A DNA stretch of 64,000 nucleotides from a candidate division WOR-3 bacterium. Its GTDB lineage: Bacteria; Hydrothermota; UBA3073; JACQXS01; JAGMCI01. The notes below the pieces were generated by a model that worked only from the letters and a program-made list of their open reading frames with translations, made no database searches and had not been told where the DNA came from. The stretch lies in the NCBI GenBank assembly GCA_023129325.1, contig JAGMCI010000001.1, forward strand, positions 23,722 to 87,721, read 5' to 3'. This document shows positions 38,178 through 63,257 of the stretch, in pieces (within the stretch, counting starts at the first letter, position 1; the number at the start of each line of letters is the position of its first letter). A program made the translations under genes and the position numbers.

Positions 38178-38881
38178 TTTACACTCTTAATAAAGCTTGC
38201 TGTATTGCTGTAACAAGAGAACGCTTTCTCAATTTTAATTCCTGTGGCTTCAATTATTTCCTTTAACTCAGAGGTAGATAAAAAGTGATACTTACCTCTT
38301 GAAGCTCTATTTACTATTACAATATTAATTAAACATACTATAAGAAGGGATGGAATTATAGCTCCAGTAAGCAAGAAGTCAAATATCTTATCTTTTCCCC
38401 ATATTTCTTTTATATGTGTAAAAAACACAGCCAAAAAGTTCTTGTAATAAGGATTAACAAATATTCCTTTGCCCTTATTTTTAAGCACCCTTGAAAGTTC
38501 CTTAACTGCTGATTCTGGGTCATTCAAGGTATAAAGAACATTGATGCTCACTACTCTGTCAAAATAATCATCAGGAAAAGGCATTCTCTTATTTAAATCA
38601 AAATATGAGAAATTAACTTTAGCATTGACCAATCTTCTACACTTTTTCTCTGCCCGGTTAAGCATGGCTTGAGAAAAATCTAAGGCTTCAACTGAAATGT
38701 TGGGTATCTCAATTTTATCAAGCCAGACTTCAAGGGTTCCAGTGCCACAACCTGCGTCTAAAATTTTAAATCCAGGCTTAAGCTCCAATTCCTCACAAAC
38801 TCTTTCCATAAGCTCTTTGTATGGAATAAGCAAAGCTATCGCATCATAGCAGGTGGCATAAAAATCCCAGAAAATGCTCAT
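38174..38881 (-). CDS. Class I SAM-dependent methyltransferase
   Basis: Motif I ILDAGCGTGTL, post-I EALDFS, and FDRVVSINVLY. Confidence 0.8.
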   Translation of the reverse strand: MSIFWDFYATCYDAIALLIPYKELMERVCEELELKPGFKILDAGCGTGTLEVWLDKIEIPNISVEALDFSQAMLNRAEKKCRRLVNAKVNFSYFDLNKRMPFPDDYFDRVVSINVLYTLNDPESAVKELSRVLKNKGKGIFVNPYYKNFLAVFFTHIKEIWGKDKIFDFLLTGAIIPSLLIVCLINIVIVNRASRGKYHFLSTSELKEIIEATGIKIEKAFSCYSNTASFIKSVK

Positions 38882-39564
38882 TCTTCACTCTCAATGAGAA
38901 TCTCACTTAAATCCTGCAAAGAATACTTTTCTCCATCCCAAGAGTAAACTTTCATCACTTTCTTTGGTGATTCAAACATTTTTCCATTAGCTGACATGGT
39001 GCGATATTCTGTAGTGATGAGTTCAAATATGCCATCTTTATCTAAATCTTCTTTATATAAATCTCCTGCATAAAGAGCCTCAGGAGTAGACCAAATCTCT
39101 TTACAGGTATCACCCTCCCAAGCGAAGGCATAACCGCTCAAGTAACCAGCATTACCTCCCACAAAGGTGGCAAGAATTTCTTCTCTCCCATCTCCATTCA
39201 AATCAAACACTTCAAGCCAGTCCAAACAATCTTCCTCTGATACAAGAACTGCCTTTTTCTCATAATTTTTCCCACAGAATACCAAGACAGAATAAGGATA
39301 AACTGATATTCCGGCACATACTATAATCTCCTGCAAGCCGTCCCCATCTAAATCTTCTCGTATTATTGTATCTATTACAATATCCTGAGAGCCAAGATTC
39401 ATCACACTGTCCTTATTTAAGTCATAGTAAATGCACTCATAGGGCAGTTTTTCTGACTCAGTTGTATTCCGTTCATATTCCCCTTTCCGTTTCATGTACA
39501 GGAGATTCAATAAACACACAATAGAAAATATAAGAAAACTTAACAAAATAATTCTTTTAAGCAT
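38878..39564 (-). CDS. FG-GAP/VCBS-repeat protein with an N-terminal signal/anchor
   Basis: DLDGDGLQEII, DLNGDGREEIL and DLDKDGIFELI repeats; hydrophobic N-terminus. Confidence 0.65.
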   Translation of the reverse strand: MLKRIILLSFLIFSIVCLLNLLYMKRKGEYERNTTESEKLPYECIYYDLNKDSVMNLGSQDIVIDTIIREDLDGDGLQEIIVCAGISVYPYSVLVFCGKNYEKKAVLVSEEDCLDWLEVFDLNGDGREEILATFVGGNAGYLSGYAFAWEGDTCKEIWSTPEALYAGDLYKEDLDKDGIFELITTEYRTMSANGKMFESPKKVMKVYSWDGEKYSLQDLSEILIESEE

Positions 39565-39819
39565 CTAATCCTCTTCATACAACTCTTTAAACTTCTCTGC
39601 AAACTCTGACTTCCGAAACAGAGTCACAGGACTCGGAAGGTCTCCGGGTTCCTTACCGTCAGGATAGTCCACGATTCTCCCATCCGGAAACTGAACCATA
39701 TAGACTCCATGGTACCACTCCCACAACCACAATTTCCCTATTTGCCCAAATCTTGGGTCGTTTCTGTCTGTTACCACAACAATAATATTGCTAAAAGGCG
39801 TTTCATTAAATTTGCTCAT
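39565..39819 (-). CDS. Small hypothetical protein, first gene of the FG-GAP/methyltransferase operon
   Basis: 84-aa ORF with RBS ggagg 6 nt upstream. Its stop abuts the next gene. Confidence 0.5.
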   Translation of the reverse strand: MSKFNETPFSNIIVVVTDRNDPRFGQIGKLWLWEWYHGVYMVQFPDGRIVDYPDGKEPGDLPSPVTLFRKSEFAEKFKELYEED

Positions 39820-39880: not shown

Positions 39881-40012
39881 CTAAAAAGAAAGGGGCACCC
39901 ACATTGCCCAGCCACAGCCGAAACCGTGACTACCGCTCCACGGACTTGGAGCAATGGAGTACCCCTATGTGGTTTTCACCACCGGGGCAATCCACTTGGC
40001 CGTGGAGCGGTT
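39881..40012 (-). ncRNA. GC-rich structured RNA element (candidate riboswitch/attenuator leader or sRNA), class not identified
   Basis: Markedly GC-rich island in an AT-rich intergenic region. 11-bp closing stem ccgctccacgg/ccgtggagcgg (39933-39943 / 40000-40010) encloses nested helices capped by a GAAA tetraloop on the minus strand. Downstream is a hairpin plus U-run (gggca..tgccc, ctttcttttt), about 60 nt before the 39819 start. Confidence 0.4.
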
Positions 40013-40535: not shown

Positions 40536-41498
40536 ATGTTAAGAGAAGGAGAACCAATCCCAGGAGGGATTAAGGAAAAAGAAGAATTAGCAGAGGTGCC
40601 TGCTGAGCGCAAGATTGAAAAGGAACGTCAGCCTACAATCAGAATTCTTTTAGTAGAAGATAGACCAGAGTATCAGAAAGCAGCAATAAAAGGTTTAGAA
40701 AAAGCTGGTTTAAAAGGAAAAGTAGTAGTGGAAACAGCTAAAGATTATGATGAAGCCATGAAACTGATTGAAAAAGGGGAAAAGAATCCGAAAGAAAAGT
40801 TTGACTGTATAGTGACAGATTTGCTTTTTCCTGAAAGGACGGGATCAGGAGACCATACATTGGGAATTGGAGTTACAGAAAGAATTCGGGAAACAATAGA
40901 GTCTTCCAACCTCAGAGATGTAGAAGATAGGGGTGTACGAGAGAATGTAATGAGTGATCTGGGCGAATTAGAGAAAGCTGTTGGAGGGGAAAAGTATGGT
41001 ATCCATGCTCCTATTATGAGATGGGAAGCGGAGCGAGAAGGTAGAGGAACAGAAAAAAGATCCATATTCAAATCCGCGGAAGCAGTCCAACCCTTAGGAG
41101 TGCTTATTGTAGAAAAGGCAAAAGAGATGGGATTACCTTATGTAATAGTTACTTCAGGTCACGGTGCCCATAACGATGTTACTACACCTATATCCTTCTA
41201 TCTTAAAGTCAGAGGGTTAATACCCAATTTCAGAGGAGCCGCTTTCAGGGGTGTATCTATGGAATCAAGAGAAAGTGAAAAAATGTTTACAGAAGAGGAG
41301 TTTATCCGCCATGAGCAAGAGTATTACAAAAGAATGGGATGGGAAATACCTTCAAAAGAAGAAGCAGTAAGGAAATATAGAGAACAGTATGAAGGCAATC
41401 CGTTCTTTACAGATATTGATAAAAGGGTTGTAGAGCTTTGGTCGTATATTCTTAGCCGAGCCGCTTTCTATGTTGAACAGAAAAGAAAGACTGAGTAG
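40536..41498 (+). CDS. Receiver-like N-terminal domain protein with an unrecognised C-terminal domain
   Basis: RILLVEDRPEYQ and FDCIVTDLLFP suggest a REC fold. The C-terminal ~170 aa (PYVIVTSGHGAHNDV...) is unassigned. Strong RBS ggaaaggagg. Confidence 0.5.
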   Translation: MLREGEPIPGGIKEKEELAEVPAERKIEKERQPTIRILLVEDRPEYQKAAIKGLEKAGLKGKVVVETAKDYDEAMKLIEKGEKNPKEKFDCIVTDLLFPERTGSGDHTLGIGVTERIRETIESSNLRDVEDRGVRENVMSDLGELEKAVGGEKYGIHAPIMRWEAEREGRGTEKRSIFKSAEAVQPLGVLIVEKAKEMGLPYVIVTSGHGAHNDVTTPISFYLKVRGLIPNFRGAAFRGVSMESRESEKMFTEEEFIRHEQEYYKRMGWEIPSKEEAVRKYREQYEGNPFFTDIDKRVVELWSYILSRAAFYVEQKRKTE

Positions 41499-41547: not shown

Positions 41548-42033
41548 GGGATTAACTGCCATGGCTAGCTGAAATAGGATTTTGTCTGAAAACTCAATTT
41601 TTACTTGCAATATTCATAAACCTCCAATATAATCGACAGGTATTTTTAAACTTAAAAAGAAGGAATGAAAATAGAAGTAGAGTGGTTTGACTATTTAACC
41701 AATTGCTATTTAACTGTTTTTTGAGTTTTTGAGAAATTCGGGGATAGTTTGGGGAGAATTTGGTGGTTGACTTTTTCACTTTATATAGTATAAGAGTAAT
41801 GCAAGGATGAAAATGGTTAATATTGGGACAATAAATTTAGAGAGTAAGGGAGCGATAGAGTTCCTTGAACTCCCTGTCCCAGGTACCAACCATCTCTTCC
41901 GCATCTTTGCGTCTTGAGGATTGAAAAAGATTAAGGGAGGTAATGTGTATGATATTTAAGAAAGAGGAAAAGCAGTGTATTTTGAGGAATGGAGGAGTTT
42001 CTCGGGGCAATTTTAACCAAAAGGAGGTGTGAG

Positions 42034-42900
42034 ATGTTAAATGCGAGAAGAAGTATTGCAGGACTGGTGGTTCTTATAACCATTGCTCTCTTGGGAGCGT
42101 CTTTTTGGGGATGTGTTCCAAAGGGGGTTGAACGAGGAGAATCGGTCTTAGAGAAAGTAAAAAGAGAAAAAGTTATTCATGCAGGATACATAAAATACCC
42201 ACCCTTTGTTATTCAAGACCCAAAAACAAGAGAGTTATCGGGCTATTTCATCGATTTGATGGCCCAAATAGCAGAATTGATGGGCGTTGAAATTGAGTAT
42301 GAAGAGACCAACTGGGGCAGGATGATAGCCGCACTTGAGACCGGAAAGGTTGATGTTGTTGTATCGGGAATCTTTAGAACAATCCCTCGGGCGATGCAGG
42401 TGACCTTTACAAAACCTGTCCTTTATGTCGGAATTAGTGCCATCATTAGAAAGGAGGATACGAGATTTAAAGAGCTCGAGGATTTTGAAAAACCCGGGCT
42501 GACAGTAGCTGTGACAGATGGAGAGGTTGGGCATGAGTATGCCAAAAGATACCTTCTAGATACCAAATTAATTGTTCTGGAGACGGAGGATATTACACGT
42601 CCTATGTTGGAGGTTATTACAGGGCGTGCAGATGTAGCTTTGGGCGATGCAATGTCCTGTTATCGATTTGCGAAGGAGCATAAGGAAAGTGTCACAGATC
42701 TATTTGCCGGAAGGCCTTTTTATGTTTTCGGTACAACCTTAATGATAAGAAGGGGTGACCCAGAGTGGCTTGATTTTTTAAATCTTGCTTTGGAATTTAT
42801 GGAAAACTCTGGATTCACAGACAAACTGGAAAAGAAGTACAAAGAGGCAGACGCTGCTTGGCTAAGTGCCGCAAAACCATGGAGAACTGAGACAGAATGA
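42034..42900 (+). CDS. Amino-acid ABC transporter substrate-binding protein (family 3 SBP)
   Basis: Signal/lipobox-like LLGASFWGC, then GYIKYPPF...LSGYFIDLMAQIAELMGVEIEYEETNWGRMIAALETGKVDVVVSG. ATG 42034 after aaaggagg is preferred over 41989. Confidence 0.8.
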   Translation: MLNARRSIAGLVVLITIALLGASFWGCVPKGVERGESVLEKVKREKVIHAGYIKYPPFVIQDPKTRELSGYFIDLMAQIAELMGVEIEYEETNWGRMIAALETGKVDVVVSGIFRTIPRAMQVTFTKPVLYVGISAIIRKEDTRFKELEDFEKPGLTVAVTDGEVGHEYAKRYLLDTKLIVLETEDITRPMLEVITGRADVALGDAMSCYRFAKEHKESVTDLFAGRPFYVFGTTLMIRRGDPEWLDFLNLALEFMENSGFTDKLEKKYKEADAAWLSAAKPWRTETE

Positions 42901-42977
42901 GTCAAACCATGTGGAATCCATCACCTAATAGTGACCAGTGATTTTGGCATTAAACCAATTGCAGAGGGTTACATATT

Positions 42978-43649
42978 ATGCATTATAATTGGGATTTAGG
43001 TCTGTTATGGGAATACAGACGGGTATTTTTACATGGTGCCATAGTTACACTGGAACTAACTGGAATCACAATACTTTTTGGAACAATCTTGGGCACTTTT
43101 CTAGGTGTTCTTTTACTTTCAAGGAATAAAATAATTCGAGGAATAGTAGTAACTTATGTTGAACTTCTCCGGGGGTTACCACTCTTAGTACTTCTCGTTT
43201 GGCTTTACTATTTTCTACCTGCTTTTCTCAATATCAAAATCTCCGCTTTTACAACAGCTGCCTTTGGATTATCAATAAATTTATCTTCTTTTGTGGCTGA
43301 TGTTGTACGAGGTGCTATTGATGGTGTGCCTACAAGTTATAAGGATGCAGCTAGATCTTTAGGTATGTCTTCAAAGCTAATTTTACGTAGGATTGTTCTA
43401 CCAGAGGCTTTTAGAGCGTTAATCCCAACTCTTACTGCCCTGTATATAACAATGTTTAAGATGTCGACATTAGCCTCCGTAATATCTGTTTGGGAACCAC
43501 TGCACTCCGGTAATAGTATCATAATACACACATACAGAGCTCTCGAAGTCTATACTGGAATTGCTATTATATATCTAATAATTATTGTGCCTGCAACTTA
43601 TTTTTCAAAAAAACTGGAGAAGAGTAAGTACTTTATACGCAGAGTTTAA
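42978..43649 (+). CDS. Amino-acid ABC transporter permease (His/Glu/Gln/Arg/opine family)
   Basis: ELLRGLPLLVLL plus the EAA-loop-like YKDAARSLGMSSKLILRRIVLPEA; about 5 TM helices. Confidence 0.85.
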   Translation: MHYNWDLGLLWEYRRVFLHGAIVTLELTGITILFGTILGTFLGVLLLSRNKIIRGIVVTYVELLRGLPLLVLLVWLYYFLPAFLNIKISAFTTAAFGLSINLSSFVADVVRGAIDGVPTSYKDAARSLGMSSKLILRRIVLPEAFRALIPTLTALYITMFKMSTLASVISVWEPLHSGNSIIIHTYRALEVYTGIAIIYLIIIVPATYFSKKLEKSKYFIRRV

Positions 43650-43679
43650 ACTGTTGATGTGGGAGAAAGGAATAGAGAT

Positions 43680-44507
43680 ATGAACAGGGTAATCATGAAG
43701 ATTCAAGATATCCATAAATCTTTTAATTCGAATAAAGTCCTTATAGGAATAGACCTTGAAGTAGAGAAAGGGGAAACGGTCTGTATTATAGGCCCAAGCG
43801 GGGTAGGAAAAACCACTCTTCTCAAATGTTTGAACTTGCTTGAATTAATAGATCAAGGCTCAATATATGTTAAAGATAAAAAGATCATAGAGGCTAAAAC
43901 AAATGGCACTGAGCACCAGAATTCCATGCCTGCTTGTATATTCAAGGGAAACAATCGAGAAGAAATCGAAAGGAAAATTTTCGTTAGAGAAGACGAATTT
44001 AGGAAGATCGTCGGAATGGTTTTTCAGCAGTTTAACCTTTGGCCAAGTAAGACTGTGTTCGAAAACATTATTGAGGCTCCCATTTATGTGAAGAGAATAA
44101 AGAAGGAAGAGGCAGGAGAAATAGCTTTAAGACTCTGTAAGGAAGTGGGTCTTGAGGATAAGATGAGTAGTTATCCGATTGAGCTTTCTGGAGGGCAGCA
44201 GCAAAGGGCAGCAATTGCACGCGCACTGGCAATGGAGCCTGAGATATTGCTCTTGGATGAGGTAACATCCGCACTGGATCCAGAGTTGGTGGTCGAAGTT
44301 CTGAGGGTCATAAAGCGACTCAAGGACAAAGAGATAACTTTATTGGTAGTGACACATCACATTGAGTTTGCCCAAGAGATTGCGGACAGAATTATATTAT
44401 TACATAGTGGTAGTATCATCGAACAAGGCCCTCCACAAGAAATACTCCAAAATCCAAAGGATAGAAGAACAAGGAGTTTTCTTGGTACCATTTTAGAAGC
44501 TCGATAA
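43680..44507 (+). CDS. Amino-acid ABC transporter ATP-binding protein with an insertion after the Q-loop region
   Basis: Walker A GPSGVGKTT, signature LSGGQQQRAAIARA, Walker B ILLLDEVTSALD, H-loop VVTHH. Confidence 0.85.
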   Translation: MNRVIMKIQDIHKSFNSNKVLIGIDLEVEKGETVCIIGPSGVGKTTLLKCLNLLELIDQGSIYVKDKKIIEAKTNGTEHQNSMPACIFKGNNREEIERKIFVREDEFRKIVGMVFQQFNLWPSKTVFENIIEAPIYVKRIKKEEAGEIALRLCKEVGLEDKMSSYPIELSGGQQQRAAIARALAMEPEILLLDEVTSALDPELVVEVLRVIKRLKDKEITLLVVTHHIEFAQEIADRIILLHSGSIIEQGPPQEILQNPKDRRTRSFLGTILEAR

Positions 44508-44763: not shown

Positions 44764-47700
44764 ATGGACAACAAAGCTAATAAGGAATTTAAGATATTAG
44801 AGGCAAAGAAGAAAATAAAAAATAGATATTCTATAGAAAGATTCCCTGAGGAAGAGAAATATATTTTAGGAGCTATTGGAATATCTATAGAAACCTTAGA
44901 TGAGAAAAGTAGGGGAATTTTATACCATACATTAAGGGATGTCTTAAAAGAAATAGGTGATATCCCGATAGGTATTAAGAAAGGATGCTTTCGAGGAAGA
45001 ATAGATGAGGGATGCTGGAAGTATCAAAATTGTGAGATTAAAGATTTACATGAGTCTGACAGGAACGGATTGAATTTCAACTGCTGGGCAGGAAAAAAGA
45101 AAAGGATGTGTAAGAATAAAAACGAAAAAATCTGGAAGTATCAATTTGACAATGGTAAAAATACAAATCCATACAGTATCTCCCCCAAGCCACATCTCAA
45201 AGAACAATTCGGGGGATGCGGTGATTGTAATTTAAGACAAGATTGTCGTGATTCCAAACCCTGTCCTTATTTAGGATGTGTTACGCCGAGCATAATTGAG
45301 GAGAATTTTAACCTGAATTGGTTGCCAAAGAATGTATCAAAGTTAGATAATGAGGGATTAAAAGCTCTGATAAAAGACAGGTTAGAAGAACTGTCAAAAC
45401 CGGAGGACAACGAAACAAATGAGAAAAAGAAATCCAATATGTTCCTATTAGATACATTGTGCCCTTATACATATCGCTATACTTTACCAGACCCAATACC
45501 AAGTCTAACTTATAAATCAGATAAGTTCCCTAATCAGATGAGATTTCTACAATGTTACATCACTTCCCGAGAGTTTGTTGATGAAGTGTTACATGATATT
45601 TTAAATATATATGGAATAGGGGTACTGTTTATAGATCCTCGTAAAGGAAGAAAAGGAATCTATCATATACAGAAGAATGCAAGTTCTGATATGAAACCAT
45701 ATTTGGAACTACCTTATTTTATTATAAAGTCTGTAGAAGGTAAAGAAACTTGGAAAGAAACAGAGAATGATTTTTTTATAACTACTCTATTTCAAATTCT
45801 TCGTCAGAGGCCCACTATTACAGCGAAAGGAAGACTCTATCCTGAAGTTTTCTATGTGTTGAATGAAGACAAGAAATACCGTCTAAATGAGTTTGAGAGA
45901 TTAAATGACCTTCTTTTTTGTACAGATGGGGAACTAAGCACATTTATTTTCACCTGGCGCCTATTGAAATGGAATGAAGCTTGTGATAAACAGGAAATTA
46001 AAATAGATGATTGGATGGAACTGACAAAAAAACAAAAGAAATATATCGACCTGAATAATACAATGACTCCTGAGGAAGAGTTCATTCTATGTGAGAAAGA
46101 AAATAAGTTAATCATGTTGCAATTCAAACAAGAGTTAAAAGAGACTGGTATATGTAACCTAAAGGAACTAACAATACAAGAACATATAGAACTGCCATTA
46201 AAAAGGAGAATTGGGCCTTTCAAGAGAACTTTAAAAGAAGAACTTAAGGTGTTAGGATTTATAGAAGAGCCTGTAGATAATAGCAAAGAATACAAAGTTA
46301 CTAAAAGATTCTGTAGGATGATTATATGGGTAACAGATTTATGTCGGAAGGCTCTAAAGTATAGATTGAATAGCTATAATGTAAAAAGATTCTATACTGA
46401 GAGAAATGAGAAAGAGGAAGAGTACTGGCTCGATTTTGAAAAACTAAAGTTAGAAGAAGAGGAAATATTAAAATTGTCTGATAGATATAAAAAGTATCTT
46501 CAAAATGGCACCGAGGCTATCACGAAAGACAAATTCAAAAAGGATTTGAAAATAATTAAGGAGATTCTTCTATCTGGATTCAAAGAAGAAGAATTCAATA
46601 AAAAGATAAACAAAATTAACCAGATAGCCAGATTCCCAATACTACCTTATTATGTATGGAGAGCGAATGAGATTTTCTCAATGGCTCATATAGGTTTTTC
46701 ACTAAGCCCAAGAACTGTAAAAGATACCGAAGATAAAGATAAGGAAGTAGTGTTCTTTGTGGGGAGCGTTAAGGACGAGAGTGAAAAGATTACATTGGAA
46801 GGCATTCAAGAAGATATGAAACCATTACTTCTGCAGAACAAGGATTTTTTCCTGACTATGTTACTTCCTTTAATAAATAATATATTGTACGATAAGATAA
46901 TCTATGAAGAGATTTCATCCTATGCTAAACGAGTTGCTGCCGTTACTATCATCATTGATGCTTTTGCTCATAATGTCGCAGCACATTGTCTAAGTGCCCT
47001 TGTTTTGTATCTCGAAGAGAAAAGAAAGAAATTGACTGACAGTACAGAAATTTATAGAGGACAAAACTCGCAGAAAAAGAAAGAGATTCCTTGTCCTACT
47101 TTAGATGAACTTAAAAAATTATTCCAAATGCCAGACATTCCTGATACTCCTAATTTTGATGGGTGTAAAGAATATGATGCAAAATTTGACGATTCCTACA
47201 AAAAAATGTTCTCACTGTGTGTCTATTTGGAAAGAGAAGAGACTTCCTTTGTTAACTTTCTCATATTTATGCGGGCAAAAAGCGCATTTTGGGCTGGAGC
47301 CATTGGCTATCAATCACCAGGTGGAATAATTATGAATTTCTACGATATCTTTACTCAGTTTGCGGATAATTCTTTATTTCTTGGAACAATTGCCTATAGC
47401 GAGGAAATTACTGGGGTTGCTATTAAAATAAATAACAAGGCGGGAGCTGTTTCTCTCCTTGAACAAAGCACTTATCGCTATGAATACAATAGCATCACTG
47501 GAAATGAAGAATTTTTAAGAGAAAAGGAGTGGAATGATACTTTTTATAAAGTTAATGCTAGCTACAAACCTCAGAAAATACATAAGGAGCTTAAAAAATA
47601 CAATATTTTCTTGCCCGGGGGAATAGTTGGACTTCAAGCCCTTTATACAATTTGGGAAAATATTTTAAGAAATGTGAAACATACGAGAACTGATTATAGC

Positions 47701-49032
47701 ATAATGCCCTTGAAGATCGAGATTAAAGAGGATGGAAATAAGTATTCCATTACCTCTTATCTTGATTTAGAAGTTGATAATGCTAAAGAAGTTGTTTATG
47801 GGGGGGAAGAAAATGGTAAGCATAAGCTTGGTATTATTGATAACATCAGGAAAGGTATCGTAGACGAAAATGGTAAGCCCCTTATGGGAGGGAATACTCA
47901 AGTGGTAATATGTGCAGGGCTCATCAGAAGCTTATCTCCTGTAGAAACGCATCAGAAAATCAAAGAGGAAGAACAAGATTTATTGAAGGTGTTTGTTGAA
48001 GATAAAAAGATAAAGTACGCTGTGAAAGTATGGAAAGGTGATTACTATGTTAAATGGAAAGATATCAAGAATAGCATAAGGGATAAAAGCGAGGAGAATA
48101 TTTATCGTTTTAAGATAGTAGTTACAGAGAATGCTGACGATGAGAAGGAAATAGCAAGATTAAAAAGACCTCCAGTAAGAAGGATACAAATGTTCGCTAA
48201 TAGATTGAAAAATTTAGAAAAAGGAAATACAAGCAAAGGGAATATCGATAAGAAAAAGGTTTTTAGACAACTTTACGAAGAATGGCTGGCCCAATGGGTT
48301 TATGAAGATAATTTAAAATTTAAGTTTGCAGCGTATGGGAGAATTTGGCAAAAAAAACCTAAAAATATTGTTAAATACGAAGGAGATGAATATGATGAAG
48401 TTTTTGTGCATACTGATGACCAAGAAGTATTAAAGTCTTCTCGAAATCATATAGGTGTGAGAAGCCATGGTACCTTTACAGAATTAACCAGAGAAGAGAA
48501 AGGGAATAAACTTCTTGCTGAGAATCTCGAAGAATTGATAGAGATCCTTGCTACAAGAATCACAATACTGGATAATAGAATTCTTAATAAATTTCAAAAT
48601 TTGCATGAGAGGCAACAAAAAATCTTATCTGATACTCTAAATGTAAAAATATTCAAGGAAGAACAACAAAGACATAAGCTATTGAAAGTTGTGAAGGGAA
48701 CTGAAAAAAAACAACATTTCCTAGTAATCCACCTCTCTAATATAGAGACAGCCAAAGAAAACGGAAAAGATATTTATAAAGAAAATTTACAGGAGTTCGT
48801 AGACGAGGTCGTTGGTACTCAATCCTCCCCCAAGCTATATCGTTACCTTGTATTCACTTCGGGTAGAAACCGCAGGGTTGAGAAAACGGGTTTTGATGAT
48901 TATCAAAAACGCCGCACATTTTTTGTACATCTCGAAAATTTTCTTCGGATTTTTGAATGGGCATCCCAGATTCCAATTGAAGCAGCCTTTCGTGTAAAAT
49001 ATGGACTTGTTAAATGCTTGGTGGGAACATAA
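44764..49032 (+). CDS. 1422-aa cytoplasmic giant protein: Cys-rich N-terminal region, ~600 aa unassigned, histidine-kinase-like (H-box-like plus GHKL ATPase-like) core, C-terminal pseudo-receiver
   Basis: Cys cluster GCFRGRIDEGCWKYQNCE...NCWAGKKKRMC...GGCGDCNLRQDCRDSKPCPYLGC. IIIDAFAHNVAAHCLSAL is H-box-like; LYTIWENILRNVKHT is N-box-like; GKPLMGGNTQVVICAGLI is G2-like. The C-terminus (RITILDNR / HFLVIHLS / YLVFTSGR) is REC-like without an acceptor Asp. No TM helices seen. Confidence 0.6.
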   Translation: MDNKANKEFKILEAKKKIKNRYSIERFPEEEKYILGAIGISIETLDEKSRGILYHTLRDVLKEIGDIPIGIKKGCFRGRIDEGCWKYQNCEIKDLHESDRNGLNFNCWAGKKKRMCKNKNEKIWKYQFDNGKNTNPYSISPKPHLKEQFGGCGDCNLRQDCRDSKPCPYLGCVTPSIIEENFNLNWLPKNVSKLDNEGLKALIKDRLEELSKPEDNETNEKKKSNMFLLDTLCPYTYRYTLPDPIPSLTYKSDKFPNQMRFLQCYITSREFVDEVLHDILNIYGIGVLFIDPRKGRKGIYHIQKNASSDMKPYLELPYFIIKSVEGKETWKETENDFFITTLFQILRQRPTITAKGRLYPEVFYVLNEDKKYRLNEFERLNDLLFCTDGELSTFIFTWRLLKWNEACDKQEIKIDDWMELTKKQKKYIDLNNTMTPEEEFILCEKENKLIMLQFKQELKETGICNLKELTIQEHIELPLKRRIGPFKRTLKEELKVLGFIEEPVDNSKEYKVTKRFCRMIIWVTDLCRKALKYRLNSYNVKRFYTERNEKEEEYWLDFEKLKLEEEEILKLSDRYKKYLQNGTEAITKDKFKKDLKIIKEILLSGFKEEEFNKKINKINQIARFPILPYYVWRANEIFSMAHIGFSLSPRTVKDTEDKDKEVVFFVGSVKDESEKITLEGIQEDMKPLLLQNKDFFLTMLLPLINNILYDKIIYEEISSYAKRVAAVTIIIDAFAHNVAAHCLSALVLYLEEKRKKLTDSTEIYRGQNSQKKKEIPCPTLDELKKLFQMPDIPDTPNFDGCKEYDAKFDDSYKKMFSLCVYLEREETSFVNFLIFMRAKSAFWAGAIGYQSPGGIIMNFYDIFTQFADNSLFLGTIAYSEEITGVAIKINNKAGAVSLLEQSTYRYEYNSITGNEEFLREKEWNDTFYKVNASYKPQKIHKELKKYNIFLPGGIVGLQALYTIWENILRNVKHTRTDYSIMPLKIEIKEDGNKYSITSYLDLEVDNAKEVVYGGEENGKHKLGIIDNIRKGIVDENGKPLMGGNTQVVICAGLIRSLSPVETHQKIKEEEQDLLKVFVEDKKIKYAVKVWKGDYYVKWKDIKNSIRDKSEENIYRFKIVVTENADDEKEIARLKRPPVRRIQMFANRLKNLEKGNTSKGNIDKKKVFRQLYEEWLAQWVYEDNLKFKFAAYGRIWQKKPKNIVKYEGDEYDEVFVHTDDQEVLKSSRNHIGVRSHGTFTELTREEKGNKLLAENLEELIEILATRITILDNRILNKFQNLHERQQKILSDTLNVKIFKEEQQRHKLLKVVKGTEKKQHFLVIHLSNIETAKENGKDIYKENLQEFVDEVVGTQSSPKLYRYLVFTSGRNRRVEKTGFDDYQKRRTFFVHLENFLRIFEWASQIPIEAAFRVKYGLVKCLVGT

Positions 49033-49045: not shown

Positions 49046-49162
49046 ATGAAAAAGTATGTAATAGTCACTTTTCAAACGGTATATGGATACGAGATAAAAG
49101 ATTTAAAGGGCAAAAGTAACCGAAGCGTTAAAAAATTATTAGAGTATAATAGAAAAAAATGA
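49046..49162 (+). CDS. 38-aa small ORF, translationally coupled between the giant gene and the next gene
   Basis: AAAGGAGG lies 6 nt before ATG 49046. The stop TGA overlaps the next start (ATGA at 49159). Confidence 0.35.
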   Translation: MKKYVIVTFQTVYGYEIKDLKGKSNRSVKKLLEYNRKK

Positions 49163-50433
49163 AGTATTGCGAATGTGATGTTCCAGGCCAATACATTCTC
49201 ATAGTGGTGGACTCCACAGAGGAGTTCGATGAGAAGACAATGAATAAAATCAATGGAATAGTTCAACACTATAACATCACCAGTAAAAACGGCGTGTGCT
49301 TTTTACACAACCGCAAAAGCCCTCTTTATGACATTCCTGAAGGTTGTGATGACGAAAAAATCCCTACAAAAGAGTATGCTGGTTTCCAATCGTATCCCTA
49401 TTGTCTTTTAGATCTTATTTTCTTTGAAAAGAAGAAAATGTACGAGGGAAGAGAAGAGTGTAGCAAGTTTCCTTCTTGGGAAGAAATTTTAATAAAATTT
49501 GAGTCCAATTGGGAAGAACTTATTTTCTCTCCCTTTCTCCCCCTTCATCTCTCTCTCCAAGCCTTCTTTGGGATTAGTAGAGATGAGAATGGAGAATTTG
49601 TAAAAGTTGGGACGAGAACCGAAATAGGAGATGCGGAAGAACAGAAGATACTCAATTCCATTAATGTCCAAAGAGAAAAATTGACTAAGGAAAGAAAATT
49701 GAAGGACGGCAACCAAGATCTTCCTGATAAGTATAAAAAAACCTTCCCTAATCCAGATGCCTTTCTTCTTGTAGATGAAGCTCAATGGGATTTCTATGCA
49801 TCTACATTCGATAAAATTATGCCTCCCAACAAATGTGTGGGAATAAGAGATGGGTGTAAAGAAAACCGTAATGAAGAGAAAGAAGAGTATGATAAAGACA
49901 AAAAAATAGCACTTCTTTTAGAAAAGTTCATAAGCCACATAAAGGGGAAGGATGAAAAGGATAAATTATCGGCTTTGAAAATAGCGATTAGTAACGAGTT
50001 CGGCGAAGAAGCAAACCATAAATCGGATGGACCTATTCCTGCTAACTACAAAATTAAGATTCCCTGTGAGGAGATTGGGTATGATAACTTTGTAAAAACC
50101 TTGCGTGAGCTCTGTGCTATCCTTGCAAATACTCCTGCCCGTGGCGATCCAAAAGATTGTAAAAATAAAAAGGGAATTTTTGTTTATAAAGGGAAATGCG
50201 ATAAAGAAAGAGACGAAATCCTTGAGCAAATTCGAGGTATAAACGGTAATAACTTAGATAGAATTTGTCACTGTAAATTAGAAGAAAGAGTAAAAGATAA
50301 AAATTGTAGCTATGAAGTCCTCAGAAACCAGATTGCCGATTGGGGTATTTGGAAGGTAATGAGAGTTATTGCAGGGATTGAGGAGCTGGCCAAGATTTTA
50401 GATGATGCAATCAAATGCCATGAATTGGATTGA
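49159..50433 (+). CDS. Hypothetical protein with an N-terminal receiver-like module and a Cys-rich unassigned C-terminal region
   Basis: QYILIVVDSTEE and YCLLDLIFF fit REC strands beta1/beta3. The remainder is Lys/Glu/Cys-rich with no recognised motif. Confidence 0.5.
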   Translation: MKYCECDVPGQYILIVVDSTEEFDEKTMNKINGIVQHYNITSKNGVCFLHNRKSPLYDIPEGCDDEKIPTKEYAGFQSYPYCLLDLIFFEKKKMYEGREECSKFPSWEEILIKFESNWEELIFSPFLPLHLSLQAFFGISRDENGEFVKVGTRTEIGDAEEQKILNSINVQREKLTKERKLKDGNQDLPDKYKKTFPNPDAFLLVDEAQWDFYASTFDKIMPPNKCVGIRDGCKENRNEEKEEYDKDKKIALLLEKFISHIKGKDEKDKLSALKIAISNEFGEEANHKSDGPIPANYKIKIPCEEIGYDNFVKTLRELCAILANTPARGDPKDCKNKKGIFVYKGKCDKERDEILEQIRGINGNNLDRICHCKLEERVKDKNCSYEVLRNQIADWGIWKVMRVIAGIEELAKILDDAIKCHELD

Positions 50434-51247
50434 TTTCGTTGATGGAATGAAAATTGCTCTTTATGAATGTGGGCAAGTTGCTTTAAAACTTAAAGGAAAG
50501 GTTACAACTCAACGGAAAAAGCAAGATTCACAACACCAGACAAGTCTTGAGCTTACAGATGTTGACCTTCTTTCACAAGAGATTATCTTACTTCGAGCAT
50601 ATTCATTAGTTCCATCATTGGAAATATATAGTGAAGAAATAGAAGAGTGTCCCAAGGCAGTTTTTTCTCTTTTTTCTAAAAATAAAAATCGATATGTACT
50701 AATTATAGACCCTTTAGATGGTACAAAATGTTATCTCGCTGGTGGGAAAGCCTATGCACACATGGTCGGCATACTCGATCAAGAAACAGAGAAAATGGAG
50801 TGCAGCCTAATTTATTTCCCTGAAAAACGGGAACTGTATTCTGCTGTCAAAGGAGAAGGCAGTTGGGTGCAAAAATGTTTTTATACCAAGCCTGAACCCA
50901 TTAAACCTAAAAATCCCCCTAAGACTTTTGGAATTGTAAAGAGAACTAAAGAAAAGAATTGTGAAATTTTTCAAAAGCATAGGTTTCAACTTGTGAAACT
51001 TAACGAGGAAAATAGTTCATGTGCCTCATACCAAATCCAGATCGCTAAAGGCGAACTGGGGATTGTAGGTATGCGCCATTTCCATGGCCATGACACTGCG
51101 ATACCTGGTTTGATTGTCCAAGAACTCGGTGGCGCAGTGGTTGATGCAGAAGGGAAAAGTGTGAAATACGACAAAACTATGGCAAGGATATCTCTTGTAA
51201 TTTCTTCCCTTCGGAAAGATTATGCAAGAATTCTATGTAAAGAGTAG
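50420..51247 (+). CDS. Inositol monophosphatase / CysQ / SuhB-family phosphatase
   Basis: LIIDPLDGTKCY (DPxDGT), upstream ELTDVDLLSQE, and HDTAIPGLIVQELGG (WDxAAG-like). Confidence 0.75.
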   Translation: MNWIDFVDGMKIALYECGQVALKLKGKVTTQRKKQDSQHQTSLELTDVDLLSQEIILLRAYSLVPSLEIYSEEIEECPKAVFSLFSKNKNRYVLIIDPLDGTKCYLAGGKAYAHMVGILDQETEKMECSLIYFPEKRELYSAVKGEGSWVQKCFYTKPEPIKPKNPPKTFGIVKRTKEKNCEIFQKHRFQLVKLNEENSSCASYQIQIAKGELGIVGMRHFHGHDTAIPGLIVQELGGAVVDAEGKSVKYDKTMARISLVISSLRKDYARILCKE

Positions 51248-51274: not shown

Positions 51275-53777
51275 ATGGACACCCTTATTCATAGGACCAA
51301 AAGGAGAAAATCTTGAAGTTCTTGAGTCCATAATAATAGAAGTCCTGAGAGAGAATATATATTGGCGAAGAAATTTTTATCCTCAAGACCGAGTCTCTAT
51401 TGCCCCCCAAGCTAAACTCGCTGATCCATATGGTAAAATAGTAGCAGAGTTTCGAGCAAAGATAGGAGAGATAACGCAACAATTGAAGAACGAAGGTCCT
51501 TACTATAGCCCGAGATATATTGGTCATATGCTTTCTGAGACTTTAATTCCAGCCATTGCAGGTTTCTTTGCAACAATGCTTTATAACCCAAATAATGTTA
51601 CAAGTGAAGTTTCTCCAATTACTACTAAATGGGAAATTGAAGTCGGGAAGGATTTTGGGACTCTTATGGGCTATGAAAGAGATAAATGCTGGGGGCATAT
51701 CACATCAGGTGGAACAGTGGCAAATATAGAAGCTCTATGGGTTGCGAGAAACCTTAAATATTATCCACTTGCTGTCTGGAAAGCGTTGGTTTGCCACTGG
51801 GACCCCAATGTAATAAGGGATATAAGAATAACACCTGACAGGAAGGATAAGAAGTTTTTAGAGCTTACACCTTGGCAACTCCTTAATCTTGATGTAGATG
51901 AGATTCTTTCTTTGAGAAGGAAGGTAATAGAGCACACTTTAACGAAGGACCCTATGGGAAGACGAACGGAAGTAGAGAAAAAATTTGATAAAGAAGTAAA
52001 GAAATATTCAATTCAAGGTATAGGGTTCCAAAAATTTCTTGAAAAACTTACAGAGGACCCAGAAAATGAAAAGACAAGACTATGGGGAAAAAAGAAAAAG
52101 CTATTTAAAAAAGGACTCAGAGATATCAAGCCCGGTGTGATATTGGTGCCACGAACAAAGCATTATTCCTGGGACAAAGCTGCGGATGTTTTAGGAATTG
52201 GAGCTGAGAGAATAATAAAAATATCTATTGATAAACATTACAGAATGGATCCTGAAAAAATGGGAGAAAAGATAAAGGAATGTAATAAAGAAAAGAAACC
52301 AATTATAATGGTCGTTTCAGTCTGTAGCTCTACTGAAGAGGGAGCAATAGATGATTTAAAAAAGATCAACGAAAAGAGAAAAAATTTACGAAAAGAGAAT
52401 ATTGCTTTTTATCTTCACTCAGATGCTGCTTACGGTGGCTATTTTGCCTCCATGCTGCTAAAAAGCGATAGTACTCCTCACATTACTCGCATAAACAATG
52501 TAAATGATTTTAAACGATATTGCAATAAGTTAACAGAGGAGCATAGCGAATTATTGTTTAATGGCTTATGCTTCCTCAAAGATACAGATTCTGCTACTAT
52601 AGATCCGCATAAACTTGGTTATATTCCTTATCCAGCCGGAGGCATAGTTTTCAAGAACAAAGCAGTTCAAGACATGATTTCCTTTGAGGCTCCTTATATA
52701 TTTCATGGAAATGAAGAAGAGTTTATTGGAAGATACATTCTTGAAGGTTCTAAACCTGGCGCTGCCGCTACTGCTGTATATCTTTCCCATAGAGTCATAG
52801 GACTAAATCAAGAGGGATATGGAGACTTACTTTATAAGACAATAAGGGCCGCCAGAATCATATACATGGTAATAAAAAAGATAAACGACGACCTTCAAAG
52901 AGAGGAAAGATTAATCAAAGTAATTCCTATTTCTGAACCTGATACAAATATAATAGATTTTGTAGTGAATTTTAAAGATAATGTTTCTCTTAAAAAAATG
53001 AATGAACTGGCAGAAATTTTATATAATGAGCTTGGGATGATTGCGGGGAAAGAACTTCACGAATACCATTTTATAATATCAAAAACAGATTTTGAATGGG
53101 ATGGATATCATGGAAATACGTGTCGTTCTTTATTAACATCTGCAGAAATAAACCCAGGTAATTTTGTCTCTGAAACACCAATAGAAGAAAAAGATAAGGA
53201 TGACAAAATAACGGTGTTTCGGATAACTCTCATGAATCCTTGGTTACTTCAAGGGAAAGTGAATTATTTTAAAAAGTTCGGCAACTATCTCGGATTTTTG
53301 CTAAGGCTTCTTTCCCCTAAGATTCTTATTGTAGAAGATGAAAATAAAGATGCGGAACGTCTTATAAACATATTAAGAGATATAGAAGCTGTAAAACCTG
53401 TCAAGTTTGCTAGTTGGGGTAGAGCCAAAACTAGGGAAGAAGCTATAAAATGGTTGAGAAAAAATGTAGATATAGATATTCTTCTTCTCGATGTTGAATT
53501 GGTATACAAAGATGATAAAGCATTGGATCCTATAGGAGGTATGGGAGTCCTCTCCTATTTAAGAAAAGAGATGGGAAAAAAGCACACTCCTGTCATAGTG
53601 TACAGTAAGTTCCCAGAGAGTGAAAAAATAGAAAAGCTTGTTGAGCATAGATTTGATAGAAAAACTGATTATTTTATTCACAAAGAAAGAGAAAAATCGG
53701 AAGAGGAAAGAATGCAGGAAGAGCATTTTCTTCTTGTAAAAATATTGAAAGGACTGAGGAAAAAGTATTATGAATAG
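51275..53777 (+). CDS. Group II PLP-dependent amino-acid decarboxylase (TyrDC-like N-terminus) fused to a C-terminal receiver domain; start region is frame-anomalous
   Basis: LFIGPKGENLEVL...IYWRRNFYPQD, HITSGGTVANIEALWVARN, HSDAAYGG, and DPHKLGYIPYPAGG (PLP Lys). C-terminal REC: KILIVEDENKD, ILLLDVEL, VIVYSKF. The only ATG with an RBS (51275) is one base out of frame with the conserved N-terminal peptide (see findings). Confidence 0.75.
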
Positions 53778-54186
53778 GAATATTTTTTCTATACTGGGCA
53801 ACAATCCGGTAGGCTGGGCTTTTGCAAGAATGTTTTTCGGCAACAAAAACGAGGTTAATATAATAAGCTTAGAGAAAATAAAAGAATTAAAGACAGATTA
53901 TCTTGTAGTAGCGGATAAAAAAGTATCTCTGCATACCCTTTTAACTATAGAGATCGAAAGTAAAACCACTTTTCCTATACTTTATCTGATTACTGGGAAA
54001 AATTCAGATTTTCCCAAAGTCAAAGGTATTTCAGTTATGGAATTGCCGATTCGTATAGTAAATATCCCAAGAGCATTATCTGGAGCTAAACGAGGTAAGC
54101 AAGAAATAGAAAAAGACACACTTTATAAAAAGAATTATTGGTATTACCTTTGTGAAGTGAGGAGTGCATTAATATATCATGGATAA
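53770..54186 (+). CDS. Small degenerate receiver-like protein
   Basis: The start overlaps the decarboxylase stop by 8 nt. YLVVADKK / ILYLITG / VMELPIRI give a REC-like strand pattern lacking the N-terminal acidic pair. Confidence 0.4.
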   Translation: MNRNIFSILGNNPVGWAFARMFFGNKNEVNIISLEKIKELKTDYLVVADKKVSLHTLLTIEIESKTTFPILYLITGKNSDFPKVKGISVMELPIRIVNIPRALSGAKRGKQEIEKDTLYKKNYWYYLCEVRSALIYHG

Positions 54187-54249
54187 AAGATAGTTTATTA
54201 AAAGGAAGAATGGAACCATAAATAGAAAAGTTCAATTCATTAAGAGAAA

Positions 54250-54912
54250 ATGAAAACAGTGGCGCTTATGGGACAGAAAACCCCATTTTTTCTAAATTTT
54301 GAGAGAATCTTTCTTGGCATTGGAATCAAGCCAAAATTTTTGAACGAGAACAATTTCCAAAGTAAACTTTCAGCAAAAAAATCTGTTGATATTATTATAA
54401 CGATAGACACAAACTATAACACCTCTTCTCAAGTCAATAAATGGATATGGAATAGGCTAAGACTGAATGAGGAACGAATAGGCAAAGAACTTGCTGGTCT
54501 GCCAGTTTTAGTGCTTGGAATAGATAAGAAGTTTATAGAAAAACCTGAGGGGAAAGTCTTCCGAGATTTTAAATGGTGTCATCAATATCTTACAAAACCT
54601 CTTAATCTGCAAAAGTTTCTGGAAGCTTTGAGTATTTTATCTCCTATTGACCCAGGGTCGCTCTCTGTAATTAAAGAAGATGCTCCAGAAAGTATGTTAG
54701 GCGTTCTTGAGCACGACCTTAAAGCTATATCTCAAAAATTCAATTATAATGGAAGCGATGAGAATGTTAGAAAAAGATTTCATGAGGTTAAGATTGACCT
54801 AAAAAATTATGAAACTTTAGAAAAAGATAAAAAGAAAGCTAGAAGAATAAAAGAAGAAATCGAGAAACTAAAGACAGAAATAATTAAAAGAAAAGGAAAT
54901 ATATGGAAGTAG
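54250..54912 (+). CDS. Receiver-like protein with a C-terminal helical region
   Basis: VDIIITIDTNY, PVLVLGI and QYLTKPLNLQKFLEAL (K-P of beta5). C-terminal LEHDLKAISQ is weakly HPt-like. Confidence 0.45.
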   Translation: MKTVALMGQKTPFFLNFERIFLGIGIKPKFLNENNFQSKLSAKKSVDIIITIDTNYNTSSQVNKWIWNRLRLNEERIGKELAGLPVLVLGIDKKFIEKPEGKVFRDFKWCHQYLTKPLNLQKFLEALSILSPIDPGSLSVIKEDAPESMLGVLEHDLKAISQKFNYNGSDENVRKRFHEVKIDLKNYETLEKDKKKARRIKEEIEKLKTEIIKRKGNIWK

Positions 54913-55724
54913 AGAAGATTCTTGTTATAGACGATGAGATGTACCCAGAAGGAAGCAAAGAGCCGAGATACGGGCGACTTTCAGAAGCCGATTTAGCTGT
55001 CCAGATAAAATCATTTATGGAATCTCAAGAATTTGAGGTAGAATTTTCTGAAAAAGGAGAAGATGCGATAGAGAGGATAGAAAAAGATATTGAGAAAGAA
55101 ATTAAGCTTGTACTTTTGGATATAAGATTCACAAAAGTAGACACCAGAATGCAAGGTCCTACAATTTTCAGGAAAATTAGAGAGATAAGAGGTGATTTAC
55201 CGATAGTTATAATTACCATCCTGCCCACCAGAAAACTACCCCAGCGGGAAGATATATTTAAAGAACTGGTCGAACTTGGAGCATCCCTCTTTATTGAGAA
55301 AAAATATTTCACAAAGAGAGGCAAAGAACAGCTCAACTTTATCAATGCCCTTATAAGAAAACAGGAAATTAAATATACTTTAAGATACAGTGAAGGGCTT
55401 GATTCTGACAAGATGGAAATCATAGACATAGATATTCTCAGAAAAGAAAAAGATACCGAATTTTCTATATTAAAGAACCCTTATCGTATTCCATTTCCAA
55501 TGGAGGATTATATAGAGCAATGTGTTGAGGAATTCCCTAATCCAGTGCATTGGAAAGAAAACCTTGCGGTTCGCGAGGAGTGGACGGATACAAAGTTTCA
55601 CAAAGAGGTTCACAAGCTTAACGACAGAATAATGCGCTCCTCCGGTGGCAGGATTCCCGACCTTCTTGAGAGACTCGGACGTGCAGGTTGTAGGTTGAAT
55701 ATAGATAAGATAGAGAAAAGGTAA
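54903..55724 (+). CDS. Response regulator: receiver plus OmpR-like winged-helix output (divergent)
   Basis: KILVIDDEMY, KLVLLDIRF, PIVIITILP and LFIEKKYF. The C-terminal FHKEVHKLNDRI resembles the OmpR/PhoB recognition region. Confidence 0.55.
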   Translation: MEVEKILVIDDEMYPEGSKEPRYGRLSEADLAVQIKSFMESQEFEVEFSEKGEDAIERIEKDIEKEIKLVLLDIRFTKVDTRMQGPTIFRKIREIRGDLPIVIITILPTRKLPQREDIFKELVELGASLFIEKKYFTKRGKEQLNFINALIRKQEIKYTLRYSEGLDSDKMEIIDIDILRKEKDTEFSILKNPYRIPFPMEDYIEQCVEEFPNPVHWKENLAVREEWTDTKFHKEVHKLNDRIMRSSGGRIPDLLERLGRAGCRLNIDKIEKR

Positions 55725-55781
55725 GGGAACTTATCTCAATACCTCACTCAGTAGCAGAAAAGCTAACATTGGTGGACAGAA

Positions 55782-63256: not shown

Positions 63257-63257
63257 A

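Follow-up and report, generated by a model that had tools for sequence, protein, structure and literature searches.

The stretch of DNA examined here (the window) covers 64,000 nucleotides of contig JAGMCI010000001.1, from assembly GCA_023129325.1 of a candidate division WOR-3 bacterium. A single ATG-to-stop open reading frame (ORF) at positions 44764-49032 of its plus strand, preceded at a distance of ~9 nt by the Shine-Dalgarno-like sequence AAGGGG, encodes a soluble protein of 1422 residues, here called P0001, which belongs to an unannotated histidine kinase (HK)-like family and is the subject of this work; features given below lie on the same strand unless a minus is indicated. A P0001-identical protein is encoded by two independent assemblies of one cold-seep metagenome, and its sequence is present in sequencing runs from cold-seep DNA only. 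A preliminary description of this DNA had singled out P0001 for a dense cysteine cluster, a kinase-like core and the lack of a transmembrane segment. All the sequence strings quoted there (GCFRGRIDEGCWKYQNCE, NCWAGKKKRMC, GGCGDCNLRQDCRDSKPCPYLGC, IDAFAHNVAAH, WENILRNVKHT and MGGNTQ) are found in P0001, and the protein indeed has no membrane segment: its highest 19-residue Kyte-Doolittle mean is 1.56, and this maximum falls on a polar helix (residues 729-747) that bears His, Asp and Asn residues. None of the curated models in Pfam 2025, NCBIfam 2026 or PADLOC 2.0 matched P0001, the search of its fragments against Pfam at E ≤ 10 likewise gave no match, and an Rfam scan of the 64-kb window found nothing.

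The first database search with P0001 returned one distant relative, P0002, with 24% identity over residues 679-1422. A profile made of these two sequences retrieved 35 proteins of 630-1885 residues in an indexed search, all of them labelled 'hypothetical' and devoid of Pfam matches in the region they have in common. An exhaustive hidden Markov model (HMM) search of 1.84 billion cluster representatives yielded 1794 proteins at E ≤ 1e-3, 695 at E ≤ 1e-10 and 331 at E ≤ 1e-30, and the module conserved throughout the family corresponds to P0001 residues ~707/712-1422. A literature search for a description of the family brought up nothing relevant; the family is previously unrecognised, as it is covered by no curated model and no paper that we found, and it may have been overlooked so far because no profile recognises it. 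Among the species representatives of GTDB, it occurs mostly in Saprospiraceae and Lewinellaceae, with further hosts in Ignavibacteria, Cloacimonadota, Aminicenantes, WOR-3, Bacteriovoracaceae and a metagenome-assembled genome (MAG) of the Promethearchaeota. Two cultured isolates, Flavilitoribacter nigricans DSM 23189 and Arcicella sp. LKC2W, carry a family gene, and no relative was found in the plasmid and phage collections that were searched. P0001 itself falls into a sub-clade with P0008, P0009 and P0017 (42-45% identity), which retains every residue that is invariant in the family.

An AlphaFold2 (AF2) model of residues 705-1422, computed from a 36-sequence alignment, has a mean pLDDT of 77 and a pTM of 0.80; its core elements (N-box helix, sandwich strands, G2 helix) are modelled at a pLDDT of 88-95. 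When this model was compared with the PDB using Foldseek, 25 matches were obtained at E ≤ 1e-3, and the top 50 (E from 6e-5 to 2e-3, probability ~1.0) were all HK cores consisting of the dimerization and histidine phosphotransfer (DHp) and the catalytic, ATP-binding (CA) domains, except for PDK2 (6lil) at rank 45 with an E of 2e-3. They include CpxA, HK853, WalK/YycG, LOV-HK chimeras, phytochrome kinase modules, CusS and HprS. The PDK2 match raises the alternative that P0001 is a GHKL Ser/Thr kinase or an anti-sigma-like switch (of the PDK/BCKDK or SpoIIAB type), or else a GHKL ATPase that is not a kinase, with a merely structural hairpin; the arrangement E965...N970 also loosely recalls the ExxxN motif generally known from GHL ATPases. 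However, the 44 better-ranked matches are two-component HKs, DHp domain included, two invariant His residues are located on the first helix of the hairpin, and the conserved partners described below are receiver proteins, not sigma/anti-sigma factors or dehydrogenase complexes, which makes this alternative very improbable.

The modelled core opens with a DHp-like helical hairpin (residues 707-846, 46882-47301), in which a first helix (707-767) is joined through a low-confidence or disordered loop (761-824) to a return helix (808-846) that ends in KxAFWxG (839-845). The hairpin is thus predicted to carry its conserved His on helix 1, as expected of a DHp domain, and the DHp domains of CpxA and HK853 are among the Foldseek matches. 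Conservation, counted here and below over alignment columns of 166-169 family sequences, delineates on this helix an H-box-like motif, I729-x2-D-(S/A)-x-A-H736-N737-x2-A-H741-(S/C)-L743 (46948-46992), which starts near residue 321 in most family members; H736, N737 and H741 are invariant (166/166). H736 is the favoured candidate phospho-acceptor and H741 the alternative; in a greedy, non-significant hhalign alignment it is H736 that pairs with the phospho-His of HisKA. The hairpin is followed by a CA-like alpha/beta sandwich (residues 850-1090, 47311-48033), for which the Foldseek comparison of the predicted structure points to a Bergerat (GHKL) fold. This domain holds a beta-rich insertion of ~95 residues (854-946) with the invariant motif FxxN869xLxLGTIAxSE880, after which an N-box-like motif, T962-x2-E965-N966-x-L-R969-N970-x-K972-H973 (47647-47682), closes the predicted helix 954-973, with which the sandwich begins. 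Within it, E965, R969, K972 and H973 are found in 169/169 sequences, N970 in 166/169 and N966 in 162/169. The model then shows two long strands, a partly disordered, low-confidence lid-like segment (residues 1001-1041, 47764-47886), the GG helix and further strands. The G2-like motif is M-G1042-G1043-N-T-Q1046-V-V-I-C1050-A (47884-47925): G1042-G1043, present in 168/168 sequences, open the helix 1043-1054 directly after the lid, Q1046 is invariant and C1050 is again found in 168/168, so that the family motif reads GGxxQ(DK)xC, as compared with the usual GxGxG. The invariant C1050 (47911-47913) is situated within the helix that follows the GG loop.

The spacing between N970 and G1042 in P0001 is 72 residues, and an N-box-to-G2 distance of this size is near-canonical for kinases; the extra length of the P0001 core is due to two insertions, ~65 residues in the hairpin loop and ~95 residues ahead of the N box. 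By their position in the AF2 model as well as by their near-invariance, the anchors proposed in the preliminary description therefore coincide with the helices of the H and N boxes and with the G2-like loop, and its suggestion of HK- or GHKL-like spacing interrupted by long insertions agrees with the model. The conservation counts for the His in FAHNVAAH and for the N-box Asn, together with the DHp-like and Bergerat folds that Foldseek recovers as HK cores, lend support to its idea of a kinase-like core at the level of predicted structure. Further invariant or nearly invariant residues are I729, D732, A740, K839, W843, N869, E880, P951 and G956 in the helical and insert region, W1090, R1115, R1140, W1174, H1216, R1233, H1235, E1260, D1270 and R1272 further on, and E1299, H1323, S1325, F1345, T1365, G1367, R1368, R1370, E1391 and K1412 towards the C-terminus.

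P0001 heads an operon that is rich in receiver domains. Its gene is followed by those for a 424-residue Cys-rich protein (49159-50433), a protein of the inositol-monophosphatase family (IMPase; 50402-51247), a pyridoxal phosphate (PLP)-dependent, tyrosine-decarboxylase-like enzyme with a C-terminal receiver whose acceptor Asp is intact (51483-53777), two proteins of 138 and 220 residues (53770-54912), two receiver proteins of 273 and 271 residues (54903-56597) that have the DD pair and the acceptor Asp and match the REC profile in hhalign at 98% and 96%, respectively, and an enhancer-binding response regulator composed of receiver, sigma-54 AAA+ and HTH_8 domains (56600-58009). A strong intrinsic-terminator-like hairpin of 11 pairs with a T run (58075-58100) ends the operon. 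The DD pair, acceptor Asp, Thr/Ser and Lys are intact in the receivers of all four proteins (273-residue, 271-residue, sigma-54 and decarboxylase fusion). A fifth receiver protein, of 320 residues with a long insertion (40536-41498), is encoded upstream of the transporter and is possibly part of the same system; the transporter in question, located 5' of the P0001 gene, is an ABC importer with an SBP_bac_3 binding protein, a permease and an ATPase (41989-44507). No second kinase is encoded within the operon, and the only canonical kinase in the surroundings is a 7TM-HK (HisKA_7TM) with its own regulator at 35617-37529 on the opposite strand. Because P0001 resides in an operon full of receivers, it is probably their missing kinase.

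Several of these genes recur with close relatives of P0001. The closest relative, P0009, has a homologue of the 424-residue protein encoded directly 3' of its gene, and the 220-residue protein is 46% identical to another product of the P0009 locus. The 424-residue protein also shows a weak link to a family of ~320-residue partner proteins that is common elsewhere (hhalign 24%; HMM E of 0.0015-0.006 through the P0009-locus homologue). The fusion of a decarboxylase with a receiver is unusual in that it represents a response regulator with an enzyme output, and an IMPase-family gene adjoins it.

The association with receivers holds in other genomes. The loci surveyed comprised ten of metagenomic origin and 78 from species representatives of GTDB; genes downstream were counted on the same strand in the 56 loci with at least 4 kb of downstream sequence and genes upstream in the 57 loci with at least 4 kb of upstream sequence. 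A receiver-sigma-54 activator is encoded downstream of the family gene in 45/56 loci, and the acceptor Asp and Lys of these activators are conserved in 61/61 sequences, so that cognate receiver partners are found both in the window and across the family. The ~320-residue protein is encoded immediately downstream in 39/56 loci, a ~257-residue protein in 42/56, a ~610-residue protein in 20/56 and a ThsB-like TIR-receiver protein in 7/56, while polyprenyl-synthase-like genes precede the family gene in 35/57 loci and ABC-importer genes in 27/57. A canonical HK within 10 kb of the family gene was seen in just 2/78 loci, both times over 6.8 kb distant and encoded on the other strand. One Saprospiraceae MAG (GCA_035326885.1, locus L007) contains, at positions 1-18145, two complete tandem copies of the system with family proteins of 1052 and 1053 residues, each copy having its own ~340-residue partner, receiver proteins and sigma-54 activators. 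The ThsB-like TIR-receiver fusions are located ~4 kb downstream on the same strand, at 17333-18145 in L007 and in 7-8 of the 78 GTDB loci (for example, at 14837-15688 in L079), which suggests that some systems of the P0001 family drive an NADase-type effector.

Taken together, the predicted fold, the invariant His, Asn and Gly residues on the appropriate elements and the pairing with phospho-competent receivers that have no other kinase lead us to infer that P0001 is, rather likely, a highly divergent yet functional histidine kinase feeding a branched set of receivers. In such a scheme, P0001 would act as a cytoplasmic sensor that dimerises via its hairpin, uses N970/K972 and the GG loop to bind ATP-Mg and autophosphorylates at H736 (or H741). 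The phosphoryl group would then be passed to the sigma-54 activator, the two stand-alone receivers, the PLP-decarboxylase-receiver protein and perhaps the upstream 320-residue receiver, so that both sigma-54-dependent transcription and enzyme activity would respond to a cue from inside the cell. Input would come through the variable N-terminus, which in P0001 would comprise a unique extension of ~450 residues with a 10-Cys cluster. The cue would probably be a small molecule that the neighbouring ABC importer takes up and/or associated enzymes produce, since in relatives of P0001 enzymes of this kind are part of the protein or encoded beside it.

A number of observations weigh against the assignment of P0001 as a histidine kinase. 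Neither HATPase_c, HisKA nor REC of Pfam was detected in 36 family members even at E ≤ 1, an hmmsearch of PDB sequences with the family profile gave nothing at E ≤ 10, and hhalign comparisons of this profile with the window's own canonical HK and with a four-sequence HK alignment that included HK853 both returned a probability of 0.1%. Because every sequence and profile method was negative, a single predicted structure carries the kinase assignment, and the profile searches of the kind envisaged in the preliminary description (Pfam, hmmsearch and hhalign) yielded no kinase match. Likewise, the family was never recruited by jackhmmer searches that started from a canonical CA domain and covered all fetched loci. 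The Foldseek E-values are modest (~1e-4) and the TM-scores low (0.35-0.54 when normalised to the target), ~160 residues of insertions break up the proposed core, and the presence of two invariant His residues makes the phospho-acceptor ambiguous. Several residues with ~95% conservation across the family (R848, D1047-K1048, G1369, W1373, P1389 and D1407) are also missing from the P0001 clade; positions 1047-1048 are VV there, as against DK in 95% of the family. Finally, co-occurrence in an operon is no proof of phosphotransfer, and the ~320- and ~257-residue partners could share the chemistry. The negative profile tests, the low TM-scores and the interrupted core are also what would be seen if the likeness to HKs were an artefact of structure prediction and search, the module being another enzyme or a scaffold that happens to co-occur with receivers. 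Against this stand the pLDDT of 88-95 in the core elements, the strikingly homogeneous set of Foldseek matches and the motifs, which fall on structurally expected elements without having been imposed by the search; we consider such an artefact very improbable.

A further point against the kinase assignment concerns the nucleotide-binding site. In GHKL proteins, the Asp of the G1 box binds adenine. In P0001, D1001 at a strand end occupies the topological site of this residue, and the P0001 clade keeps Asp or Glu there; across the family, the column is variable (D32/H32/G30 of 168), the next one is mostly His, no GxG follows and the G1 box DxGxG is absent from the family alignment, as is the F box. 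Together with the loss of the near-invariant D1047-K1048 beside the GG loop in P0001, this would fit a kinase-dead protein of HK fold, acting as a phosphatase, a phosphotransfer scaffold or an allosteric partner, with acetyl phosphate, a different kinase or a reaction in the C-terminal part as the phosphoryl source. Pseudo-kinases of this type do exist, and the PDB chains resembling canonical HKs include RetS and DivL; the large extra C-terminal module with its invariant set of His, Arg and Glu residues, together with the R-x-H-G motif at 1233-1236, could be read in the same way. Yet the invariance of the N-box residues expected to handle Mg and phosphate and of the GG pair in ~169 sequences is hard to explain without nucleotide binding, the acceptor sites of the receivers are intact, and there is no other kinase nearby in 76/78 loci. 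We therefore regard a kinase-dead P0001 as unlikely, if a more serious contender than the alternatives discussed above.

The C-terminal ~340 residues are shared by the whole family. In a separate AF2 model of residues 1081-1422 (pLDDT 82, pTM 0.83), a small three-strand alpha/beta subdomain (1091-1180, 48034-48303), supported by conservation as well as by the model and carrying the near-invariant N1112 and the invariant or nearly invariant R1115, R1140 and W1174, is followed by a (beta-alpha)5 domain (1252-1422, 48517-49029) that is modelled confidently (pLDDT ~90). The latter consists of five strand-helix units in the flavodoxin-like topology typical of receivers, and its conserved polar residues gather at the strand ends: E1260, D1270, R1272, E1299, H1323-L-S1325 closing strand 3, T1365-x-G-R-x-R1370, P/H1389-x-E1391 after strand 5, and K1412. 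As in hybrid HKs with a C-terminal receiver or pseudo-receiver, a (beta-alpha)5 unit thus follows the core, with an Asp ending strand 1 and a Thr ending strand 4. Unlike those, there is no DD pair (D1270 has no second acidic residue beside it), no acceptor Asp after strand 3, its place being taken roughly by H1323 and S1325, and no Lys after strand 5; hhalign sets H1323 ~four residues off the acceptor position of receivers. A Foldseek search of the C-terminal model against the PDB gave generic alpha/beta folds with a best E of 0.078 and no significant receiver, hhalign of this region against the REC profile of the neighbouring activators gave a probability of 1.5%, and Pfam produced no receiver match for the domain in P0001 fragments or in 36 family members. 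Receiver identity is therefore unsupported for this domain, which shares generic topology only. The 'receiver-like' C-terminus of the preliminary description is a matter of interpretation and was not upheld. No homology was detected between the C-terminal or middle domains of P0001 and the conserved partner proteins. Our guess is that the C-terminal ~340 residues constitute a family-specific module for regulation, or for phosphatase or phosphotransfer chemistry at the H1323/T-x-G-R-x-R pocket. In the low-confidence linker that precedes the domain, the conserved motif R-x-H-G (R1233-S-H-G, 48460-48471) is reminiscent of the RHG motif of histidine phosphatases such as SixA, a likeness without support from the fold.

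In contrast to the conserved module, the N-terminal ~700 residues of P0001 have no detectable counterpart. Residues 1-449 (44764-46110) form a lineage-specific extension without a detectable homologue, and residues ~450-705 (46111-46878), a putative input domain, align to the typical N-terminal domain of the family (~300 residues) with low posterior probability in the family HMM. Searches with residues 1-704 against 169 relatives, including the closest clade, by phmmer and hhalign found no homologue, and the same programs found nothing in a comparison of the N-terminus with the polyprenyl-synthase-like neighbours; an indexed database search with residues 1-704 also gave no match and is uninformative, because P0001 itself was not returned. 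The extension includes ten cysteines within 98 residues (75-172, 44986-45279), at positions 75, 84, 90, 107, 116, 152, 155, 161, 167 and 172, spaced as C-x8-C-x5-C, C-x8-C and C-x2-C-x5-C-x5-C-P-x3-C. Of the 24 cysteines in P0001, 10 thus fall into this segment, a density reached in 3/20,000 shuffles of the protein. The dense cluster noted in the preliminary description at residues ~74-175 is, accordingly, non-random, with 10 cysteines rather than the more than 12 claimed, while conservation of these cysteines among homologues could not be upheld, as the N-terminal ~700 residues lack a homologue even where the cores are 42-45% identical. The cluster is a candidate site that probably binds Fe-S or another metal as a redox element.

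The stretch C152-x2-C-x5-C-x5-C-P resembles the SPASM/twitch or ferredoxin-type core Cx2Cx5Cx3C(P/G), as seen in the radical-SAM/SPASM protein encoded at 15277-16407 of the window, and some relatives of P0001 have radical-SAM/SPASM enzymes fused or adjacent to them. The two differ in that the spacing is not the same, the upstream Cx9-15Gx4C half of SPASM is missing from P0001, as is the CxxxCxxC motif of radical-SAM enzymes, and the Cys block occurs in no other family member; Pfam detected neither SPASM nor Fer4 in the Cys region of P0001 at E ≤ 10. Among 24 long family members, the N-terminal Pfam domains were Methyltransf_23 (6), Radical_SAM (5, one with SPASM), HMGL-like (2) and polyprenyl_synt (1). 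The P0001 extension sits where these relatives carry fused enzyme domains, and the enzyme types that are fused in some proteins are encoded just upstream in other loci.

Other parts of the window show features of their own. On the minus strand, the HisKA_7TM gene belongs to a conventional two-component unit of its own (35617-39819), next to genes for a FeeM-like protein (N-acyl amino acid synthase family), a methyltransferase and FG-GAP proteins. A scan of the window for sigma-54 promoters (TGGCAC-N5-TTGCA, up to two mismatches) gave 20 matches against 10.7 ± 3.3 expected, a weak enrichment, and no convincingly placed site. Among the best candidates are 39893-39908 and 58196-58211, the latter lacking the GG. 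The best -24/-12-like sequences are GGGCACCCACATTGCC at 39893-39908 (plus strand), ~630 nt 5' of the gene for the 320-residue receiver protein, and TGGCATTGCCTTTGCC at 27347-27362 (minus strand). Right after the operon terminator begins a mobile-element-like block (58259-63769) that encodes a 213-residue protein, a weakly JAB-like protein (58881-59663), a ThiF/E1-like protein (59623-60429), a TraG/TrwB-like coupling ATPase (60452-61945), a Replic_Relax protein (61920-62771), a Zn-ribbon protein and an excisionase-like ORF; the E1 and JAB pair (58881-60429) recalls the ubiquitin-like conjugation modules of conflict systems. A conflict-system-like island is located at 1-16407, with an nSTAND3 NTPase of more than 1495 residues that is encoded on the minus strand and runs past the window start, a HerA-like ATPase (7043-8539), a MoxR-like AAA_5 protein (8569-9969), a VWA protein (11966-13618), an NDK-TPR fusion (13792-14652) and the radical-SAM/SPASM enzyme mentioned above. 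Between these regions, an apparent tandem duplication of a two-gene module (26388-29214) comprises RuvC-like genes at 26388-26948 and 28690-29214 and genes for paralogous proteins at 26967-27845 and 28206-28715, and a large serine recombinase is encoded nearby at 21228-22916 on the minus strand.

With two-component HKs such as HK853 of T. maritima, CpxA of E. coli and WalK/YycG, P0001 has in common a DHp hairpin and, after it, an ATP-binding alpha/beta sandwich (both predicted), an invariant His on helix 1, an N-x3-N-x-K-H helix, a Gly-rich loop and receiver-domain regulators in the same operon, including activators of the NtrC type. It differs from them in several respects: the H box of the family is A-H-N-x-x-A-H and not H-E-x-x-T/N-P, the hairpin loop of P0001 is ~65 residues long and an insert of ~95 residues with an invariant N/E motif precedes the N box, the G1 and F boxes are missing, an invariant Cys follows the GG loop, an obligatory alpha/beta module of ~340 residues terminates the protein, and many members have N-terminal enzyme fusions. 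Another system for comparison is Detocs, reportedly described by Rousset et al. in 2023 as a defensive two-component system made up of the kinase DtcA, the receiver buffer DtcB and the receiver-effector DtcC. The P0001 family resembles it in having a soluble kinase-like sensor encoded together with several receivers, in the TIR-receiver partner of 7-8/78 loci and in that some of its loci are found among defence-type genes, whereas its dominant output is a sigma-54 activator and not a nucleotide-degrading effector. PADLOC models did not match P0001, the typical member P0019 or the conserved partners, except that the TIR-receiver protein matches ThsB.

Censuses of two-component systems lean on the HisKA and HATPase_c profiles, and kinases that are invisible to these profiles therefore leave 'orphan' response regulators unexplained; in 45 of the 56 informative loci, the family protein is paired with a sigma-54 activator that lacks any other nearby kinase. 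Should P0001 and its relatives prove catalytically active, the known sequence space of the Bergerat/DHp kinase would be widened by proteins that lack a G1 box, use A-H-N-x-x-A-H as acceptor motif and keep an invariant Cys close to the nucleotide loop; a C-terminal domain whose conserved pocket looks like that of an enzyme is a second novelty of the family. As to the input signal, a testable hypothesis follows from the importers and the radical-SAM, methyltransferase and prenyl-synthase-like enzymes to which family proteins are repeatedly fused or adjacent, and genetics should be feasible in the cultured carriers F. nigricans DSM 23189 and Arcicella sp. LKC2W. It is possible, although we put this forward tentatively and with some doubt, that the family represents a new class of cytoplasmic two-component sensors, tied physically or genetically to ABC importers and to small-molecule enzymes (radical-SAM, methyltransferase, HMGL-like or polyprenyl-synthase-like, fused or adjacent). 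Such sensors would signal by way of an unusual His motif and of a C-terminal domain that is new and either catalytic or regulatory; their outputs would be sigma-54 activators, enzyme-receivers and, in some lineages, TIR-receivers, and they may form an undescribed circuit, gated by a metabolite or a signal molecule, for cell-cell signalling or defence across Bacteroidota, Ignavibacteria, Cloacimonadota, Aminicenantes and Asgard archaea.

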